Part shown: one piece after another, positions 23,822-37,392 of the stretch
Layout: each line of letters begins with the position of its first letter
Position numbering within the stretch: the stretch's first letter is position 1
From: Bacillota bacterium
Lineage (GTDB): Bacteria > Bacillota > Clostridia > Lachnospirales > Anaerotignaceae
Length of the DNA stretch: 37,392 nt
Direction: 5' to 3'
Assembly: GCA_023413275.1 (NCBI GenBank)
Contig: JAEZPX010000010.1
Span: forward strand, 1-37,392
Notes under the pieces: model-generated
Seen by the model: the letters and a program-made list of their open reading frames with translations, nothing else
Database searches by the model: none
What the model was told of the DNA's origin: nothing
Made by a program: the position numbers and the translations under genes

Positions 23822-25126
23822 ATGGCAATTGTAGAGGTTATAAAATATAATGGTGGACCAGACGTTTTTGCTTGGAAATATCCTAGTGAAGAGTTAGGAA
23901 CCTGGACACAGTTGATTGTAAATGAATCACAAGAAGCTGTTTTTATTAAAAGTGGGAAAGTATTGGATATTTTTGGGAGCGGAAGGCACACTCTAGAAAC
24001 TGCCAATATTCCTTTATTGAATAATATCATTAACTTGCCCTTTGGTGGAAGATCTCCTTTTACTGCTGAGGTCTGGTATATTAATAAAGCATTCAATTTA
24101 GATATCAAGTGGGGAACGCCCACGCCAATTCAAATTCAAGACCCCAAATATGGAATTTTTGCCCCTGTTCGCTCTAATGGTACTTTTGGCATTCAAATTG
24201 TGGATTCTAAAAAATTCTTGGTTAAATTAGTTGGTACCATGCAGGTATTCGATAAAATGTCAGTAACCAAGTACTTCAGAGGGATTTATGTTGCAAAAGT
24301 GAAGGATGCAATTTCCACTTACTTGATACATAATAAGATTAGCATATTGGAAATCAATGCATATATTGATGAGCTATCGACATTTATGAAAGAAAACATA
24401 CAGCCAACCATGGAAGAATTCGGTATTCAACTAGTGAATTTCTATGTCAATGAAATTAGTGTTCCAGAAGAGGATTCTGCAGTGCGAAAGCTAAAAGATG
24501 CTCTATCAAAGAGAGCAGAAATGAACATTATTGGCTACAGCTATCAGCAGGAGCGCTCTTTTAATACACTAGAAGGTGCAGCCAAAAACCAACATTCTAC
24601 AGCTGCTCCCCTTATGGGAGCGGGAATGGGCTTAGGTATGGGACTGGGTATGGGAAAAACCGTGGGAGCAGGATTTGGGGGAATGGCCGAGGAAATACAA
24701 ATTACCAACCATGCAGGTGAAAAAGAATGCCCTGAGTGTCATGGGAAGATGCCAGCACAACAACGATTTTGTGGTATTTGTGGCTTTGACACGAATACAG
24801 AGGGAAGCAAAAAGGAAGAGCGACGCAAATTATGTTGTTCTGAATGTGGATCACCTCTTTCAGACAGCATCAAATTCTGCACTGAGTGTGGTAGAAAAAT
24901 AAACCTCTGTCCCAAATGCGGAATAGATTTGCCTGATGGTACCAAAGTGTGTTCAGAATGTGGATATGAAATCCCCACAGCTTGTCCAGGGTGTGGTTTT
25001 TCCATATCTCCCAAAGCGAAATTTTGCCCTGAGTGTGGTCAGGTACTATTGAAGAAATGTCCGAAGTGTGATGTGGCCTTTGAAGGTACACCAAAATTTT
25101 GCCCTGAATGTGGCGAGAAGCTATAG
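23822..25126 (+). CDS. SPFH/Band-7 (Band_7_1, B. subtilis YdjI-like) protein with a Gly/Met-rich linker and five C-terminal CxxC-CxxC zinc-ribbon repeats
   Basis: N-terminus MAIVEVIKYNGGPDVFAWKYPSEELGTWTQLIVNESQEAVFIKSGK is the pattern I recall for the 'virion core protein / SPFH' Band_7_1 family. GAGMGLGMGLGMG linker. Ten CxxC motifs (CPEC..CGIC, CSEC..CTEC, CPKC..CSEC, CPGC..CPEC, CPKC..CPEC) in nt ~24726-25126. Confidence 0.7.
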   Translation: MAIVEVIKYNGGPDVFAWKYPSEELGTWTQLIVNESQEAVFIKSGKVLDIFGSGRHTLETANIPLLNNIINLPFGGRSPFTAEVWYINKAFNLDIKWGTPTPIQIQDPKYGIFAPVRSNGTFGIQIVDSKKFLVKLVGTMQVFDKMSVTKYFRGIYVAKVKDAISTYLIHNKISILEINAYIDELSTFMKENIQPTMEEFGIQLVNFYVNEISVPEEDSAVRKLKDALSKRAEMNIIGYSYQQERSFNTLEGAAKNQHSTAAPLMGAGMGLGMGLGMGKTVGAGFGGMAEEIQITNHAGEKECPECHGKMPAQQRFCGICGFDTNTEGSKKEERRKLCCSECGSPLSDSIKFCTECGRKINLCPKCGIDLPDGTKVCSECGYEIPTACPGCGFSISPKAKFCPECGQVLLKKCPKCDVAFEGTPKFCPECGEKL

Positions 25127-25847: not shown

Positions 25848-26414
25848 ATGAAAAATTCGTATTCAGCAATTGTTATGAGTATCATTATTGAAAAGATACA
25901 ATTTATTGCAGGAATTATATTTCTATTAGTGTTTGGGTTGTGCACCGTGGTGTCGTTGGCAGATGCAGAACTAGCGTCTGATGGATTTCTTGCGTTTTGC
26001 CTTGTAGTGGACGGCTTATGTATTCTGTTAATTTACTTTAGCAGAAAGAGACATAAATTAAATACTGATTTTAAGAAATATGTATCCGCACTATCGGATG
26101 ATCCTACCGGTTCTATTTTAAACTTAGCAAATGCCATGGGGACTTCAGAAGATGTGGTCTCGGTGAATTTGAATAAGATGATAGAAAAAAAATATTTTTC
26201 AAATGCATATATAGACAAAAGGAAAAATTGTATTGTTTTATATAACCAAGGAGAGACAATGGGCGTTGCACCCACTGCAGGAAATGTGAGCTCCTTTACA
26301 GGAGTCTCTCAAGAAATGGTTACAGTGCGTTGTAAAGGTTGCGGCGGTGTAAACGCAATTCCAAAAGGACAATCGGCAGAGTGTGAATACTGTGGCTCCT
26401 TGCTTCAGGGGTGA
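25848..26414 (+). CDS. Membrane protein with two N-terminal TM helices, a small winged-helix-like segment and a C-terminal CxxC-x16-CxxC zinc ribbon (paralog A)
   Basis: TMs IVMSIIIEKIQFIAGIIFLLVFGLCTVVSL and FLAFCLVVDGLCILLIYF. C-terminus VRCKGCGGVNAI ... AECEYCGSLL. Paralogous to the next gene. Confidence 0.55.
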   Translation: MKNSYSAIVMSIIIEKIQFIAGIIFLLVFGLCTVVSLADAELASDGFLAFCLVVDGLCILLIYFSRKRHKLNTDFKKYVSALSDDPTGSILNLANAMGTSEDVVSVNLNKMIEKKYFSNAYIDKRKNCIVLYNQGETMGVAPTAGNVSSFTGVSQEMVTVRCKGCGGVNAIPKGQSAECEYCGSLLQG

Positions 26415-26476
26415 GCACTTAAATAAATTGGGCAATCATTAACATTTTAAGCAACAATGAAAGTGAGGGCAAAGTA

Positions 26477-27130
26477 ATGAAAAGTAAGGGAGCCCCATGG
26501 GCGTTTATTATCATACTTTTATTTCTTTTTTTCCCAGCAGGGATTATTGTTATGTTACTTAAGCTTCATAAAGATCCATTTCACTATACATCCAATGGAA
26601 ATGGTACAATAATTGTTGGTTGGATACTATTTGTGTTCGGTATTTTTTACTTGATTATTTACCTATCTGATAGTGCCACAAACAGTGGTGTCGGTCCACT
26701 ACTCAGTGGGGTGGCTTTTTGCTGTGGAGGTGGCTTTGCTCTGGTTCGACACGGAAGAAAGTACAAACAAAGAGGAATGTTATTTTCAAGATATCTCACA
26801 TGTATTATGAATAGCGAGGATGGGTCAATAGGGGACATGGCAGCATCCTTAGGGTTTACCTATGATAAAGCTTATAGGGATATTGTAGAATTGATTCAAT
26901 GTGGCGCATTGCCTAACAGCTATATTGATGAGTCAACAAATTGTGTTGTATCTCCATATATTAAAAAAGGAGTTATTGATTATACAAACAGAACACAGAT
27001 GAAAAAAGAACCTGAAAAATTTATATCTAGGACAGTGAAATGCTCCAATTGCGGTGGTATGAATAGTATCACAGGAAATAACAATGAGTGTGAATACTGT
27101 GGCTCACCTCTTGCTTATGAATATAATTAG
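26477..27130 (+). CDS. Membrane protein, TM + winged-helix-like + C-terminal zinc ribbon (paralog B)
   Basis: Same layout as the previous gene. DMAASLGFTYDKAYRDIVELIQCGALPNSYIDESTNCVV ~ NLANAMGTSEDVVSVNLNKMIEKKYFSNAYIDKRKNCIV. VKCSNCGGMNSI ... NECEYCGSPL ~ VRCKGCGGVNAI ... AECEYCGSLL. Confidence 0.55.
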   Translation: MKSKGAPWAFIIILLFLFFPAGIIVMLLKLHKDPFHYTSNGNGTIIVGWILFVFGIFYLIIYLSDSATNSGVGPLLSGVAFCCGGGFALVRHGRKYKQRGMLFSRYLTCIMNSEDGSIGDMAASLGFTYDKAYRDIVELIQCGALPNSYIDESTNCVVSPYIKKGVIDYTNRTQMKKEPEKFISRTVKCSNCGGMNSITGNNNECEYCGSPLAYEYN

Positions 27131-27200: not shown

Positions 27201-27598
27201 TTATTTTTTTGGTCTAGAAGTGATTAAAAAAACAAGCATAAATAAATAGTATTAAGGGAGGGTAAACAGAAAAATAAGAGCCTTTAAATTAGAGTGTGAT
27301 TGCAAATGTCCGAGCTACTTTACAAATATTAGCAAAAGGGTAACTAAGGGGACATACTTTAATGATATTATCCTACCATAGATATTTGCAAACAAGCTCA
27401 TAGAGGCATTTTATATACCAATGATTTAATATTTGTAAAAATATAAATCAAAAGAGAGCATTGTTTATTGATATCTTGTTTCTGTAGACAGGCCTGCACA
27501 GATACTTATTCCAAAATTCAATTAGGGAGGGGATTTTTCAGGAAAAATGAAGAACAGAAGGTGGAGGGAAGGTATATTTCAAAGGTTAGGTGGGCGAA

Positions 27599-28012
27599 AT
27601 GGCAAAATGGGCTAAGGTAGACTATAAACAGTTGACCAAACTGCGAGATGAAGTGAACAAACTCTCTAAGGAGGAATTTCCCAAGTTCCAAGAGAAAATG
27701 GTATTAGAGATGGCCACCAGACTAGTACTAAAGGCGTTAAAGCACACCCCTACAGACCCTAAGGATTCCCCTGGGATAAGAGCGGGTTGGTGCATTGGCG
27801 ACGTGAGTTACGATGGCGGAGCCTACAGCATTGAAGTATACAATAGCTGCATCTATGCAAATTCCGTTGAATGGGGGTATTTAGCGGAGGACGGGAAGAC
27901 TTTGATACCCGGACGCTTTATGCTGCATCTTTCGGAAGAGGAGCTGCGCAAAGATGCTGACAAAGCAATAGAAGAAAAGCTGATGGAAGTTTTAAGGAGG
28001 GGTTTCCCATGA
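27599..28012 (+). CDS. Phage tail-completion / HK97 gp10-family-like protein (XkdI position)
   Basis: About 138 aa. Size and position match the XkdI/gp10-like gene that precedes XkdJ-XkdK in PBSX-type clusters. Family call from memory only. ATG 27599 with SD AGGTGGG. GTG 27590 is an alternative. Confidence 0.45.
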   Translation: MAKWAKVDYKQLTKLRDEVNKLSKEEFPKFQEKMVLEMATRLVLKALKHTPTDPKDSPGIRAGWCIGDVSYDGGAYSIEVYNSCIYANSVEWGYLAEDGKTLIPGRFMLHLSEEELRKDADKAIEEKLMEVLRRGFP

Positions 28013-28594: not shown

Positions 28595-29893
28595 ATGGGA
28601 TTAGGCGGCGGTACATATTTGGTACAAAACAAGACCCTTCCGGGGGCATACATTAACTTTATTTCTGCGGCAAGAGCTTCTGCCACACTCTCGGACAGAG
28701 GGTATGCAGCAATGGCTTTAGAATTGGACTGGGGTGTTGACGGTGAAATGTTTACCATTGAGAATGGAGATTTTCAAAAAGAATCTTTAAAAATTCTTGG
28801 TTACGAATACAGCCATGAAAAGCTAAAGGGTCTGCGAGATTTATTTTGCAATGCCAAAACATTATACGCTTATCGCTTAAACAGCGGCAATAAGGCGGTA
28901 AATCCCTTTGCAACAGCATGTTATAGTGGTATTCGTGGCAATGATATTAAAATTGCCATTTCTGCCAATGTGGACGAGCCCACAAAATTTGATGTGATTA
29001 CGTTATTGGAAAACACAAAAGTAGATATACAGACTGTGGCTGAGGTGTCAGAATTAAAGGACAATGATTTCGTTGTATTTAAAAAGGATTGGGTTTTAGA
29101 AGAAACAGCGGCAATTCCGTTGGCAGGCGGTACAAACGGTCAAACAACAGGTTCATCTTACCAGGCGTTTTTGGATAAGGCGGAAGCCTATAATTTTAAT
29201 ACATTGGGTTGTCTTTCCAAGGAGGAGAGCATCAAAGGACTCTTTGTTGCCTTTACCAAGCGATTAAGAGATGAAATGGGTATTAAATTTCAGACTGTTA
29301 TGTTTAACAAGGCGGCAGATTACGAAGGTATCATCAATTTGAAAAATAAGGTGACAGATGGTGAAGAGACTAGTCTTGTTTATTGGCTGACAGGAGCATC
29401 CGCAGGCTGTGCTGTAAATAAATCCATTGCCAATAAGGAGTACGACGGCGAGTTTTTGGTAGATACAGCCTACAAACAGAGCCAATATGCAGCCGCTTTG
29501 GATGCGGGTGAATTTGTATTCCATAAAATTGGTGACGATGTAAGGGTATTAGATGATATTAACAGCTTTGTTTCCGTTACCACAGATAAAAACGAAGATT
29601 TTACAAGTAATCAGGTTATCAGAGTCATTGACCAAATTGGCAACGATATTGCTGTGCTTTTTAATACCCGTTATATGGGGAAAGTACAGAACAATGAATC
29701 GGGCAGAATCGCTTTTTGGAGCGAGTTGGTTTCCTACAATAAGCAGATGGAACAAATTCAGGCAATTGAAAACTTTGTTTCTGATGAATTGATTGTAAAA
29801 AAAGGCAATGATAAAAAATCTGTAGTTGTGGTGAATCCTGTGACACCAGTTTGCGCCATGACGAAACTGTATATGACCGTTGTTGTTGAATAA
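28595..29893 (+). CDS. xkdK: Phage tail sheath protein (XkdK family)
   Basis: 432 aa. MGLGGGTYLVQNKTLPGAYINFISAARASATLSDRGYAAMALELDWG... resembles the XkdK/PBSX sheath N-terminus as I recall it. SD AAAGGTGA. Followed by the tube gene. Confidence 0.8.
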   Translation: MGLGGGTYLVQNKTLPGAYINFISAARASATLSDRGYAAMALELDWGVDGEMFTIENGDFQKESLKILGYEYSHEKLKGLRDLFCNAKTLYAYRLNSGNKAVNPFATACYSGIRGNDIKIAISANVDEPTKFDVITLLENTKVDIQTVAEVSELKDNDFVVFKKDWVLEETAAIPLAGGTNGQTTGSSYQAFLDKAEAYNFNTLGCLSKEESIKGLFVAFTKRLRDEMGIKFQTVMFNKAADYEGIINLKNKVTDGEETSLVYWLTGASAGCAVNKSIANKEYDGEFLVDTAYKQSQYAAALDAGEFVFHKIGDDVRVLDDINSFVSVTTDKNEDFTSNQVIRVIDQIGNDIAVLFNTRYMGKVQNNESGRIAFWSELVSYNKQMEQIQAIENFVSDELIVKKGNDKKSVVVVNPVTPVCAMTKLYMTVVVE

Positions 29894-29910
29894 GAGAGGG
29901 GGCAGAAAGA

Positions 29911-30380
29911 TGAGTAATATTACAATGCTGAGCAAGGATGCTATTTCTGCAAAAAAAGCAGAGTGCTTCATTACCATTGAAGGGAACCGTTACAACTTCA
30001 TGAGTGCCATTTCCGTAGAGGCTAAGATGGAGAAAACAAAGGCAGAAGTTCCTATTTTAGGAAGAATGAACAAGGGTCATAAGGCAGTGGGGGCAAATGG
30101 TACAGGCAGTGCCACCTTCCACTATAACACATCTATTTTCCGTGAATTGATGAAGCGTTATCAAGATACTGGAGAGGATGTTTACTTTGATATGCAGATT
30201 ACTAACGAAGACCCTACCTCTAACGTTGGTCGACAGACAATCATTCTTCGTGATTGTAACATTGACAGTATGGTGATTGCCAAGTTTGACGCTGACGGCG
30301 AATATTTAGACGAGGAAATGGAGTTTACATATGAAAGTTTTGAAATGCCCGAAACATTTCAAATGCTAAGCGGAATGTAA
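29911..30380 (+). CDS. xkdM: Phage tail tube protein (XkdM family)
   Basis: EVPILGRMNKGHKAVGANGTGSATFHYNTSIF ... YFDMQITNEDPTSNVGRQTIILRDCNIDSMVIAKFDADGEYLDEEMEFTYESFEMPETF closely parallels XkdM as I recall it (EVNIMGRRMTGHKTTGANGTGTATFYKVTS ... ). ATG 29911 with SD GAGGGGG. Confidence 0.8.
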
Positions 30381-30400
30381 AAAAAGAGGAGGAATGATAT

Positions 30401-30820
30401 ATGAGTTTATCAGCATTTTTGAATCCTGTAAAGGAAGAAACCTGCAAGGTTGTAGCTAGCAAGCGTTTTATTGGTGAGGACGGAAAGCCTGTTGAATGGG
30501 AATTGAGAACCATTACGGCAGATGAGGATGAGGCAATCCGCAAAGCCTGCACCAAAAGGATGCCCATTCCCGGAAGAAAAGGCCAGTTTAGCCAAGAAAC
30601 GGATTTAAACAAATACTTGGGTTTATTGGCGGTTTCTTGTACTGTTTTTCCCAACCTGAACGACGTAGAGCTGCAAAATGGATATGGTGTGATGGGGGCG
30701 GACAATTTGTTGAAGACTATGCTTCATGCAGGGGAGTATACCCAATATGTTTCCAAGGTTCAAGAATTAAATGGATATGATTCCTCCATGGACGAATTGG
30801 TGGATGAGGCAAAAAACTAA
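30401..30820 (+). CDS. xkdN: Phage tail assembly chaperone (XkdN-like, gpG equivalent)
   Basis: MSLSAFLNPVKEETCKVVASKRFIGEDGKPVEWELRTITADEDEAIRKACTK is XkdN-family-like. Ends at a slippery heptamer. Immediately upstream of the tape measure gene. Confidence 0.75.
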   Translation: MSLSAFLNPVKEETCKVVASKRFIGEDGKPVEWELRTITADEDEAIRKACTKRMPIPGRKGQFSQETDLNKYLGLLAVSCTVFPNLNDVELQNGYGVMGADNLLKTMLHAGEYTQYVSKVQELNGYDSSMDELVDEAKN

Positions 30821-30993
30821 TTGACGGGGGCGATGGAGACAGCAACTATGCATATTACTGCCTGCATCAGCTGCACCTATTACCCTCACAATTTTTGAAA
30901 CTTCCAAGAGAAGAAAAGGCTTTTCTAATTGCTTCTATTCAGTTAAAGGCGGAGAAAGAAAAGAGAGAGTCCAAAAAAATGAAGAAAAGGTAA
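30811..30993 (+). other. -1 programmed-frameshift extension of the tail assembly chaperone (gpGT-like product): slippery site A_AAA_AAC 30811-30817, then a 58-codon -1 ORF ending at 30993
   Basis: Zero-frame codons GCA AAA AAC TAA. The X_XXY_YYZ heptamer A AAA AAC abuts the stop. The -1 frame is open from the slip site to TAA 30991-30993 and encodes ...KK LIDGGDGDSNYAYYCLHQLHLLPSQFLKLPREEKAFLIASIQLKAEKEKRESKKMKKR, 108 nt before the tape measure start. No other ORF covers 30821-31101. Confidence 0.55.
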
Positions 30994-31101
30994 ATTAGAT
31001 TAAATATTTTGGAAAAATTTCTTGGGAAATAAATACTAACACTGGAAAAGCATTCGACATTTAGCGGATACTTTTCTGGTGTTTGGAAAGAAGGTGAAAA
31101 A

Positions 31102-32787
31102 ATGGGAACGATTAAAACCTCGATTCAATTGTTTGACGGGGCCACGCCAGGGCTTTTGGATATTGCCAATGCTTTAAATCGAGCAGTTCTTGGTTTTGAA
31201 GCCCTAGAACGGGCATCTTCCAATTGCATTGATACCAATTCTTTGAGAGAAGGCAGGGAAGAGTTGGATATGACAAAGTCATCATTTCAACAAATACAAG
31301 ATTCTATCAAAGCGGCAGGGGAACAACAGAAAAAATTCAATAAAACTATAAGTGCAAGTGCGGAGATTTCGGAAGGTATTTTTTCTAATCAAGAAAAGGC
31401 AAACGGTATAGCGAATAGTAGCAGTGGAGCAAATCTTTCGGAAATGGGACAGAAAACCCTTGGAAGTGCCAGCATTACATCTGGGATGGAGGGTAGTGGA
31501 GGAAATTTAAGCCTTGGTACAGGAGAAGAATTTCCTGAGGAAACGGCAAAGCCGACAAAGAACGATAAAGTTAACGCTGCTGTTGATACATTAAGCAGTG
31601 TGATACCGCAAGGCTATACTTCTACCGATGAGATGAAAAATTCAATGTTTGCTGCGGCGGATGAAATAGATACAAAATTCAGCGGGCTTTCTCAAGTTCT
31701 AGGTTCTGTCTGGTCTGGTGTGACAGGAGAACAAGTGGAGGCCATAAAGGTTACTGATCTTTTAGCAAATAGCTGGAGCAGCTTTGCACCTGTTGTGACG
31801 GGAGCGGCAGCAGCAATGAATTTGTACAATCTTGCTATGGATGCAGGTAAGGTGGCCCAAGTGCTACAAGCTGGCGCAACGCTAATCGGTACAGCGTTTA
31901 ATGGAGCATGGACAACTTCTGTATTTGCACAAACTGCTGCTCAAGAAGGACTGAATACTGCGCTTTTAACATGTCCAATAACATGGATTATTGTTGCAAT
32001 CATTCTTTTAGTTGCCATAATTTATGGGGCAGTGGCGGCAATTAACAAACTTACGGGGTCGAGTATTTCAGCAACGGGGATTATTGCAGGTGCGTTTGGT
32101 GTTCTGGGTGCGAGTATTTTTAATAGCTTTGCTTTTTTGTGGAATATAATTTCAATTTTCGTAAATTTTTTACACAATGCTTTTCAAGACCCTATTGCAG
32201 CTATCAAAGTATTGTTTTATGATTTAGCAACTTGTGTTTTAAAGAAACTGAAAACAATTGCAGATGCAATTGGTGAAGTTTTTCATAAGATTACCGGTAA
32301 AGATTTGCAGCTTTTTAGCGGTCTGGATACTTTAATAAGTGATCTAGAGAGTAAATCACAGGGTATAAAAGATGAAGCTGGTTTTAAGGATGTAATGCAT
32401 ACCCTTGACTACAAGGATTATAGTGGTGTATTTAGTAATATGTATGACAAGGGTGAAGGGTTAGAGAATTCATCAAGCATATTTGACAGGGACAAAGCTG
32501 GGGACGGCGGCATGGATCAGCTTTTACAAAACACGGCAAATACTGCCGCAAATACAGGGGCTATGACAGATAACATGGAAATTTCACAAGAGGATATAAG
32601 GTATCTTCGAGATATTTCCGAAAGAGATGCCATCAATCGCTTTACCACGGCTCAGGTCAGTGTGGATTTTAAAAATGAAGCAACGATAAATTCTGATATG
32701 GATATTGACGGCGTGATGAATAAGTTCACAGATGTGCTCCGTGAGGCAATCTTTACCCAGGCAGAGGAGGTGCATGCCATTGTATAA
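31102..32787 (+). CDS. Tail tape measure protein (short, 561 aa; XkdO position)
   Basis: Position right after the chaperone/frameshift pair. Coiled N-terminal third, Gly/Ala-rich hydrophobic central segments (AAAAMNLYNLAMDAG ... ITWIIVAIILLVAIIYGAVAAINKL ... IIAGAFGVLGASIFNSF). SD GAAGGTGA. Confidence 0.65.
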   Translation: MGTIKTSIQLFDGATPGLLDIANALNRAVLGFEALERASSNCIDTNSLREGREELDMTKSSFQQIQDSIKAAGEQQKKFNKTISASAEISEGIFSNQEKANGIANSSSGANLSEMGQKTLGSASITSGMEGSGGNLSLGTGEEFPEETAKPTKNDKVNAAVDTLSSVIPQGYTSTDEMKNSMFAAADEIDTKFSGLSQVLGSVWSGVTGEQVEAIKVTDLLANSWSSFAPVVTGAAAAMNLYNLAMDAGKVAQVLQAGATLIGTAFNGAWTTSVFAQTAAQEGLNTALLTCPITWIIVAIILLVAIIYGAVAAINKLTGSSISATGIIAGAFGVLGASIFNSFAFLWNIISIFVNFLHNAFQDPIAAIKVLFYDLATCVLKKLKTIADAIGEVFHKITGKDLQLFSGLDTLISDLESKSQGIKDEAGFKDVMHTLDYKDYSGVFSNMYDKGEGLENSSSIFDRDKAGDGGMDQLLQNTANTAANTGAMTDNMEISQEDIRYLRDISERDAINRFTTAQVSVDFKNEATINSDMDIDGVMNKFTDVLREAIFTQAEEVHAIV

Positions 32788-36965: not shown

Positions 36966-37392
36966 ATGGCAAGTGGTGACAAGTTTTATTTAGCGGATAA
37001 GGAAACGCTGAATGAGGTGGACGAAAAGATTGGCAGTACCAAGGATACAGGGGGGAGCAGTACCGCAGGAAGTGTCTTTGGGAAAATCAATTATTTGGTT
37101 TCTCAGGTGAGTAGTTATTTGGCTACGATTTACTCGTGGGTTAATACACTCATGGGTAAGATTGGTAATACCAATGATAGCGAAGGCACAGCAACCACAG
37201 GAACAGTAATGGGGAAGTTGAATTTTTTGGTTACAAGGATGGGTAGCGTTTATTCATGGGCTAATAATATCTTCAGCAGAGTGGGTACTACAACAGATAC
37301 AGGTGGAACCACGACAGCGGGGACAGTCATGGCAAAGGAAAATGCTATTTTGACTGAGGTGAATAAACTTGGTGATGCAAATGATACGGGTG
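36966..37392 (+). CDS. Tail fibre / receptor-binding protein with ~42-aa tandem repeats; 5' partial, open to the window end
   Basis: ATG 36966, open through 37392 with no stop, so it is absent from the ORF track. Three diverging repeats: IG(S/N)T(K/N)D..G..T.G(S/T)V(F/M)GK(I/L)N(Y/F)LV ... (V/I)YSW(V/A)N. Confidence 0.55.
   Translation, partial: MASGDKFYLADKETLNEVDEKIGSTKDTGGSSTAGSVFGKINYLVSQVSSYLATIYSWVNTLMGKIGNTNDSEGTATTGTVMGKLNFLVTRMGSVYSWANNIFSRVGTTTDTGGTTTAGTVMAKENAILTEVNKLGDANDTG

Follow-up and report, generated by a model that had tools for sequence, protein, structure and literature searches.

An Anaerotignum genome carries, in a contractile tail cluster, an XkdN-family chaperone gene that is probably read through a programmed -1 ribosomal frameshift of the lambda G/GT type; we put the probability of this reading, which is built on sequence comparison, at roughly 85%. 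The gene lies in what we call the window, that is, the whole stretch of DNA analysed (37,392 nucleotides). According to the proposed mechanism, most ribosomes would stop at the TAA at 30818-30820 and release a chaperone of 139 aa, while a minority would slip back one base on the heptamer A_AAA_AAC at 30811-30817 and read 58 more codons in the -1 frame, giving a fusion of 197 aa. Both products would come from one mRNA. An earlier note on this DNA had proposed a gpG/gpGT-like frameshift at this place. This proposal is supported by the membership of the gene in the XkdN family, by its position between the tube and tape measure genes, by the conservation of the heptamer and of the -1 ORF, by a switch of codon periodicity and by the lack of a usable start codon for the extension. 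The features on which the analysis rests are the following:

28595-29893, + strand: tail sheath gene (XkdK-like), part of the contractile tail module
29910-30380, + strand: tail tube protein gene (DUF2001, XkdM-like; PF09393, E=1e-52)
30401-30820, + strand: G-type ORF, XkdN-like tail assembly chaperone of 139 aa ending in ...DEAKN (PF08890 Phage_TAC_5, PHROG 389, PDB 3KLU)
30805-30807, + strand: TGA stop of the -1 frame, one codon 5' of the heptamer, from the translation of 30778-30993
30811-30817, + strand: canonical slippery heptamer A_AAA_AAC, in X_XXY_YYZ phase as GC[A AAA AAC]
30818-30820, + strand: TAA stop of frame 0, directly abutting the heptamer and a possible pause element
30817-30993, + strand: T-type extension from the -1-frame translation, 58 codons (LIDGGDGDSNYAYYCLHQLHLLPSQFLKLPREEKAFLIASIQLKAEKEKRESKKMKKR) and TAA; the predicted fusion has 197 aa
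30819-30893, + strand: candidate 3' stimulatory stem-loop, an interrupted hairpin in which helix 30826-30837 pairs with 30876-30887
31102-32787, + strand: tape measure gene with a product of 561 aa, assigned by its match to PHROG 1068 (tail length tape measure protein; E=5e-94)

Judged by homology, the ORF at 30401-30820 is an XkdN-family (PF08890) tail assembly chaperone gene. A Shine-Dalgarno sequence (GAGGAGG) lies just 5' of it, and its product matches the PF08890 profile over the full length (E=1.2e-46; 158.4 bits, with the gathering cut-off at 27; residues 3-138 align with profile positions 1-135 out of 135). PHROG 389 is matched too (E=3e-47), and the product is homologous to B. subtilis YqbN (PDB 3KLU, E=5e-14), a protein that likewise ends in ..AAKN. 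Proteins of the XkdN family are often mislabelled 'phage portal protein'. In the window, the gene sits between the tube and tape measure genes of a PBSX-type contractile tail module, whose order is HK97 gp10-like, tail terminator, sheath, tube, chaperone, tape measure, LysM, YqbQ-like, DUF2577, sheath initiator, baseplate J and Mu gp48-like. Pfam gave no match for the tape measure protein or the T extension; in NCBIfam, these two as well as G and the fusion were without a match.

The closest genomes belong to Anaerotignum (95% and 91% identity). Upstream of position 27590 no head genes were seen, and the genes found there are only of host type (NEAT/Shp heme binding, an FecCD-type ABC transporter and an SPFH zinc-ribbon protein). 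Since head genes are missing upstream, the cluster may be a headless, tailocin-like element (R-type, PBSX- or diffocin-like); the tail module is cut by the window's end at 37392, and the absence of head genes therefore covers the upstream side only. L085, a relative with 79% identity, does have head genes and is a complete phage.

The chaperone ORF closes with GAG GCA AAA AAC TAA, both in the sequence read and in the ORF listing. The earlier note had given this end, the place of the heptamer and the -1-frame stop TAA at 30991-30993, and these agree to the base with the sequence read, the ORF listing and the translation. The -1 frame is open from 30808 and runs for 58 codons from CTA (30817) to that stop; translation confirms that it is free of stops from the heptamer onward, as had been claimed. 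Because the TGA at 30805-30807 closes this frame upstream and the opening begins at 30808, a shift is confined to 30808-30817, i.e., to the heptamer itself. The overlap between frame 0 and frame -1 is limited to 30808-30820, and the canonical heptamer lies in phase inside it. Between the chaperone gene and the start of the tape measure gene at 31102 there is a gap of 281 nt. Besides the last 32 codons of the -1 ORF (counted from TTG 30895), this gap holds only ORFs of at most 32 aa; the earlier note had called the -1 ORF its only coding potential. No promoter-like or terminator-like sites were found on the + strand between the chaperone and tape measure genes, and an Rfam search of the whole window matched no family.

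The bare heptamer is unremarkable in this A+T-rich window, where 27 copies occur vs 22 expected. Canonical heptamers in phase number 51 in the 24 genes of the window, and only two of them (at 30811 and 28000) lead into a -1 frame that outruns the 0-frame stop. Among the -1-frame positions inside the genes of the window, only 2.5% have at least 58 open codons ahead. It is the setting of the heptamer, and not the heptamer alone, that stands out.

The peptide encoded by the -1 ORF matches PHROG families 20560 (E=3e-13), 10943 (E=1.6e-8) and also 5646, which are small families of unknown function. Over 32 diverse loci, the T peptide follows the consensus LIxxGDxEANIAYYCLHKLHxxPSxxLxLxxxEKAFIIASIxIK, after which comes a tail rich in Lys, Arg and Glu. 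The earlier note had called the extension Lys/Glu-rich; this description fits the last third (KAEKEKRESKKMKKR), but the first 40 residues form a conserved aromatic and hydrophobic motif. In the protein database the T ORF is represented by 231 small 'hypothetical' proteins, none with a Pfam domain. The T domain has no Pfam family and is unannotated or 'hypothetical' in every record and database match examined; in other genomes, gene callers list 'hypothetical proteins' of 50-80 aa for the T ORF.

A genome scan yielded 80 related loci with 51-95% identity. One of the two peptide patterns used for retrieval ends in EAKN, so that the conservation of the protein C-terminus within this set is partly circular; the circularity does not touch the invariance of synonymous sites, the pattern-independent protein search or the phage records. 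Every related locus that was read (about 80) retains GCAAAAAAC. In these loci the heptamer runs straight into a stop codon (TAA or TGA), with three exceptions that have one extra codon and read TCA TAA. The -1 ORF has a length of 57-69 codons in these loci, while the +1 frame is mostly open for 1-2 codons only.

Codon periodicity changes at the same point. Upstream of the heptamer, the mean column entropies of codon positions 1, 2 and 3 in frame 0 were 0.79, 0.57 and 1.50; downstream, the corresponding values in frame -1 were 0.65, 0.49 and 1.35. The variability of third positions thus passes from frame 0 to frame -1 exactly at the heptamer. The three third positions of the heptamer itself had zero entropy in 78 unique sequences, vs 0.8-1.95 at neighbouring third positions. 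The -1 ORF is under protein-level selection in the shifted frame.

The pattern-independent protein search found the ...EAKN end throughout the XkdN family. A megablast of 28595-32787 against the phage collection gave no match, and phage homologues were found by tblastn. Both A_AAA_AAC and the -1 ORF are kept in five phages of other genera at 35-51% identity, namely phiC2, MismyG, phiAQ113, phiOH2 and Jimmer1. The last of these has GTA (Val) and not GCA (Ala) as the codon before the run, yet the slippery A is kept. Taken as a whole, the comparative evidence strongly supports a putative programmed -1 ribosomal frameshift in the XkdN-type chaperone. A Shine-Dalgarno-like stimulator upstream of the heptamer, of the kind known from dnaX, was considered and dropped: the GAGG of the window is not conserved, and 80% of relatives have GAA there.

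Next, we considered RNA structure 3' of the heptamer, where the earlier note had suggested a search for a stimulatory structure in 30820-30900. The structure is present, and it is significant in relatives but not in the window alone. The main helix of the window stem-loop begins 8 nt 3' of the heptamer and is weakened by mismatches, for example C30831/A30882, where relatives have U-G or C-G. The energy is -21 to -23 kcal/mol. Compared with dinucleotide shuffles, the stem-loop reached z = -1.46 and was not significantly more stable than the controls; nor was it significant against a synonymous-codon null that kept the peptide and took its codon usage from about 200 codons per locus (z = -0.5 to -1.2). 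Evidence for the strength of the stem-loop in the window's own copy is weak.

RNAalifold, run on 32 diverse sequences, returned no family-wide consensus structure; after this result, named helices were tested and the synonymous-codon null was built. In 10 close relatives the same architecture as in the window was found, with energies of -22.8 to -32.2 kcal/mol, and the five of them that were compared with the synonymous-codon null scored z = -2.5 to -3.3. Four helix pairs changed on both sides among the close relatives, and these compensatory changes fall at synonymous sites. In one example, the third positions of an Asp codon and a Leu codon covary, with C-G in four sequences, U-A in four and U-G in two. 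Across most of the wider family, this G-rich 5' arm has its partner in a 3' arm that lies closer (GRAGGYGAU with AUUGCCUYC), forming hairpins of 9-20 bp that start 6-8 nt 3' of the heptamer. There, the median z against the synonymous null was -2.6, and 64% of the loci lay below -2. Paired cells made up 91.6% of the alignment of the 10 relatives, vs 40-52% with the partner slid, and 78% in the wider-family helix, vs 39-57% slid; the helices tested were derived from the same sequences, which inflates the paired percentages. From these comparisons, the evidence for selection on a 3' stem-loop in the XkdN family is good.

A fused product could also stem from an event before translation, if RNA polymerase added one A at the A6 run in some transcripts, whose normal translation would give ...EAKK-LIDGG.... 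The site is indeed a homopolymer, and two database variants of a related phage, one with A7 (P0011) and one with a run two bases shorter (P0124, inferred from the protein), fuse the frames. Run length is thus labile at some level, though the sequencing origin of those runs is uncertain, and in P0124 another homopolymer, located farther along, has changed in length as well, a sign of sequencing error. The run in the window is only A6, and it is exactly A6 in all but one of the related loci read (A7 in the fused L001). Known bacterial sites of transcriptional slippage are runs of about 8-9 or more. Moreover, neither the C at position 7 nor the phase of the run varies, and the stem-loop, conserved in relatives, stands at a spacing typical of ribosomal -1 frameshifting; its conservation favours ribosomal over transcriptional slippage. 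Given these observations, we regard slippage by RNA polymerase as improbable.

The fused variants deserve a closer description. P0011 (204 aa) aligns across the predicted junction, reading DEAKK-LINGGD vs DEAKN-LIDGGD, and its DNA has A7 vs A6 in the window. It was rejected as a natural in-frame fusion, for four mates in its cluster (at least 90% identity) end in ...DEAKN*. P0124 was likewise rejected as a natural fusion, because its homopolymers have changed in length at two separate places. For P0011 and P0124 alike, an error or variant in the length of the A run is the best reading. ORF55 of EJ-1, too, was set aside as proof of a natural fusion: an additional A right before the run makes it a single fused ORF, and its close relative MismyG is split. 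The fused variants still mark where the two frames join.

If no fusion were made, the T ORF could be translated on its own, starting at TTG 30895 or at the non-canonical ATT 30820, or through reinitiation after termination at the UAAUU overlap. The 'hypothetical proteins' of 50-80 aa that gene callers list in other genomes are compatible with this, as is the GAGG located 10 nt 5' of ATT 30820 in the window. In 17 of 79 relatives, an ATG stands at codon 7 of the -1 ORF after GGAGG, and separate initiation is possible there. The first ATG, GTG or TTG in the window, however, is TTG 30895 at codon 27; it has no Shine-Dalgarno sequence, and the 26 conserved codons lie upstream of it. With no start before codon 27, the conserved first half of the T peptide can be reached in the window only by recoding. 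The GAGG is replaced by GAA in most relatives, as noted above, and Ile is often encoded by ATA, which does not serve as a start. Independent translation would also leave unexplained the three invariant synonymous positions of the heptamer and the stem-loop at 6-8 nt, and we think it very improbable. Nor do we give much weight to a reading without recoding, in which the open -1 frame would be accidental or a relic and the 139-aa protein the sole product. Bare copies of the heptamer are frequent in this A+T-rich DNA (27 vs 22) and a -1 frame this long is open at 2.5% of positions, but chance or decay does not account for an ORF that has stayed at 57-69 codons, its peptide conserved and its third positions variable, in about 80 loci and several phage genera, or for its match to PHROG families at E=3e-13. 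We consider this the least credible of the explanations, with hardly any probability left to it.

Tandem slippage would insert Asn and give the junction EAKN-LIDGG; the junction would read EAKK-LIDGG if slippage took place in the P site only or if the mRNA carried an extra A. The earlier note had proposed the second junction, EAKK-LIDGG; this holds for P-site-only or transcriptional slippage and does not hold for tandem slippage. The abutting stop codon and the weak stem-loop might serve as pause elements. The occurrence and the rate of the shift are inferred, and the rate would be expected to be low, because A_AAA_AAC is a comparatively weak site in E. coli, where A_AAA_AAG shifts more readily, and because the lambda G:GT ratio, which is required for tail assembly, is about 30:1 (PMC5009743). 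In lambda, the tape measure protein is bound by the G part, which both products contain, and the partner of the T part is the major tail (tube) protein (PMC5009743). The earlier note had this reversed in describing a T domain that binds the tape measure. By analogy with the lambda model, the G part would coat the tape measure protein (31102-32787) and the T part would recruit the tube protein (29910-30380).

The findings also suggest a composite signal, for which we see about even odds. The XkdN family may combine an invariant A_AAA_AAC, usually abutting the stop codon, with a stem-loop whose G-rich 5' arm stands at a fixed 6-8 nt and whose 3' arm is clade-specific, being mostly the proximal AUUGCCUYC and, in the Anaerotignum clade, the distal CCURUUGCCCUC. 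Such a signal would drive expression of the conserved T domain, and the window would hold a slightly decayed copy of it in a possible tailocin. In the literature searched, no description of such a composite recoding signal in the XkdN family was found.

In kind, this is a textbook G/GT arrangement, real but ordinary, and this member of it is unannotated. The main weight of the finding falls on annotation. The 197-aa fusion product is missing from six of the six phage records inspected, with a slippage join annotated in none of them (phiC2, EJ-1, MismyG, phiAQ113, Jimmer1 and phiOH2), and the T ORF is unannotated in the phiC2 record. The gene calls of contigs L085-L090 omit the -1 ORF, which is listed elsewhere as a truncated 'hypothetical protein'. 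The invariance of the site across the family offers a simple rule for re-annotating Bacillota prophages and tailocins. Any engineering or expression of the tail cluster, e.g., in the form of a tailocin, must leave the heptamer and the overlap untouched. The understanding of tail assembly or of frameshifting is unchanged.

The XkdN protein has already been named a tail assembly chaperone, by Pfam (PF08890) and in PMC9406221, where Pell 2013 is cited. AAAAAAC has been proposed as the shift site of the chaperone in Paenibacillus phage Dragolir (PMC6003738) and in the archaeal virus HCTV-2 (PMC5009743). Among the papers searched on XkdN, xkzB, PBSX and tailocin chaperone frameshifting, none was found that describes a site in the XkdN family.

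The nearest relatives of the site are found in phages and phage-like elements of the same family. B. subtilis PBSX XkdN and YqbN of the skin element (PDB 3KLU) belong to PF08890 as well, YqbN also ends in ...AKN, and the neighbours in PBSX are the same: an XkdK-like sheath, an XkdM-like tube, an XkdO-like tape measure and XkdP-, Q-, R-, S- and T-like genes. Identity between XkdN or YqbN and the chaperone of the window is about 30%, and the heptamer and -1 ORF of B. subtilis are inferred from the protein C-terminus only. In PBSX-like regions, the T ORF may correspond to xkzB. This small ORF lies next to xkdO (PMC9406221). In the C. difficile myophages (phiC2, phiMMP01/03 and CDMH1), Streptococcus EJ-1 and MismyG, Lactobacillus phiAQ113, Brevibacillus Jimmer1 and Geobacillus phiOH2, the heptamer is identical and the -1 ORF, of about 58-64 codons, encodes a homologous peptide. 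Those XkdN-carrying phages are complete, whereas the window has no head genes upstream.

The lambda gpG/gpGT system, and the conserved tail-assembly frameshift of long-tailed dsDNA phages, were described by Levin 1993 and by Xu, Hendrix and Duda 2004, 2013 and 2014, as these are cited in PMC5009743 (Levin and Xu 2004 also in PMC3711429). As in the window, lambda has two overlapping ORFs between the major tail (tube) and tape measure genes, with a -1 heptamer at the very end of the first ORF, and one mRNA yields a short and a C-terminally extended product, as is predicted here. Unlike lambda, the window shows no detectable sequence similarity to G or T, its heptamer is A_AAA_AAC vs G_GGA_AAG, its 0-frame stop abuts the heptamer and its tail is contractile. 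Outside phage tails, E. coli dnaX (A_AAA_AAG) resembles the window in having a slippery run of Lys codons and a downstream stem-loop, and the heptamer of IS1 is A_AAA_AAC. IS1 frameshifting is listed in PMC5009743. Compared with dnaX, no conserved upstream Shine-Dalgarno-like stimulator was seen in the window, and its Z base is C, so that the A-site tRNA would be that for Asn. The purpose differs as well: the shift would serve virion assembly in the window, whereas it serves a polymerase subunit in dnaX and a transposase in IS1.

The -1 ORF that follows the A_AAA_AAC site (T ORF, 30817-30993) is separated from the ribosome-binding site of the tape measure gene by a spacer of 108 nt. The spacer has a folding energy of -21.7 kcal/mol (z = -3.6) and contains a stable hairpin, at which there is no clear U-tract. 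In the window the T ORF and the tape measure gene have only this spacer between them; close relatives carry an additional gene of 162-266 aa at the same place. The products of the inserted genes in these related loci (L085-L089) have zinc-ribbon, double-zinc-ribbon or PH_gly_zipper matches. This interval resembles a moron insertion site. The features of the interval are:

31038-31083, stable hairpin, AACACUGGAAAAG ... CUUUUCUGGUGUU
L085 6665-7465, inserted gene
L086 1024-1617, inserted gene
L087 and L088 1662-2150, inserted gene
L089 1299-2054, inserted gene

Zinc ribbons are also encoded just 5' of the tail cluster, by a pair of adjacent paralogues (29% identity, E=6e-19) preceded by an SPFH gene:

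23822-25126, SPFH double-zinc-ribbon protein
25848-26414, membrane protein with a C-terminal CxxC...CxxC zinc ribbon, no Pfam family
26477-27130, membrane protein with a C-terminal CxxC...CxxC zinc ribbon, no Pfam family

The paralogous pair (25848-27130) has the zinc ribbon in common with the inserted gene of L085 and is otherwise unrelated to it.

Within the tail cluster, the gp10-like gene (27590-28012) holds a second heptamer in phase, one codon ahead of its stop:

28000-28006, G_GGT_TTC heptamer

Its -1 frame is the one in which the tail terminator gene, next in order, is read; this gene starts with ATG at 28009, and its start and the gp10-like stop overlap as ATGA. The overlap between the two genes is 4 nt in the window, as compared to 11 nt in L001 (the A7 fused-variant locus) and L085, and because of this difference the heptamer is probably coincidental.

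Among the chaperone relatives, many PF08890 (XkdN-like) proteins are labeled "phage portal protein" in NCBI sources (e.g., P0014, P0018, P0019, and P0118), apparently a propagated misannotation. ORF55 of Streptococcus phage EJ-1 (L083 1501-2097) is annotated as one protein of 198 aa, in which the chaperone and T frames are fused by one extra A (GAAGAAAGCAAAAAAC, versus GAAGAAGCAAAAAAC in its close relative MismyG). The extra A in the 2004 record of EJ-1 likely reflects either a mistake in sequencing or a genuine mutation.

The contractile tail module begins at 27590 and continues to the end of the window (37392), directly 3' of the host-type genes of window 1-27589, which include a hybrid histidine kinase, ABC transporters, NEAT/Shp heme-binding S-layer proteins, a FecCD-type transporter, and the SPFH zinc-ribbon protein. 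Terminase, portal, and capsid genes are absent from 1-27589, and the cluster looks like a tail-only, tailocin-like one. The tape measure protein (31102-32787, 561 aa) matches PHROG 1068 (5e-94) but nothing in Pfam at E<=0.01. PF20155 TMP_3 is found in the tape measure genes of relatives. Head genes are present in L085, a relative with 79% identity.
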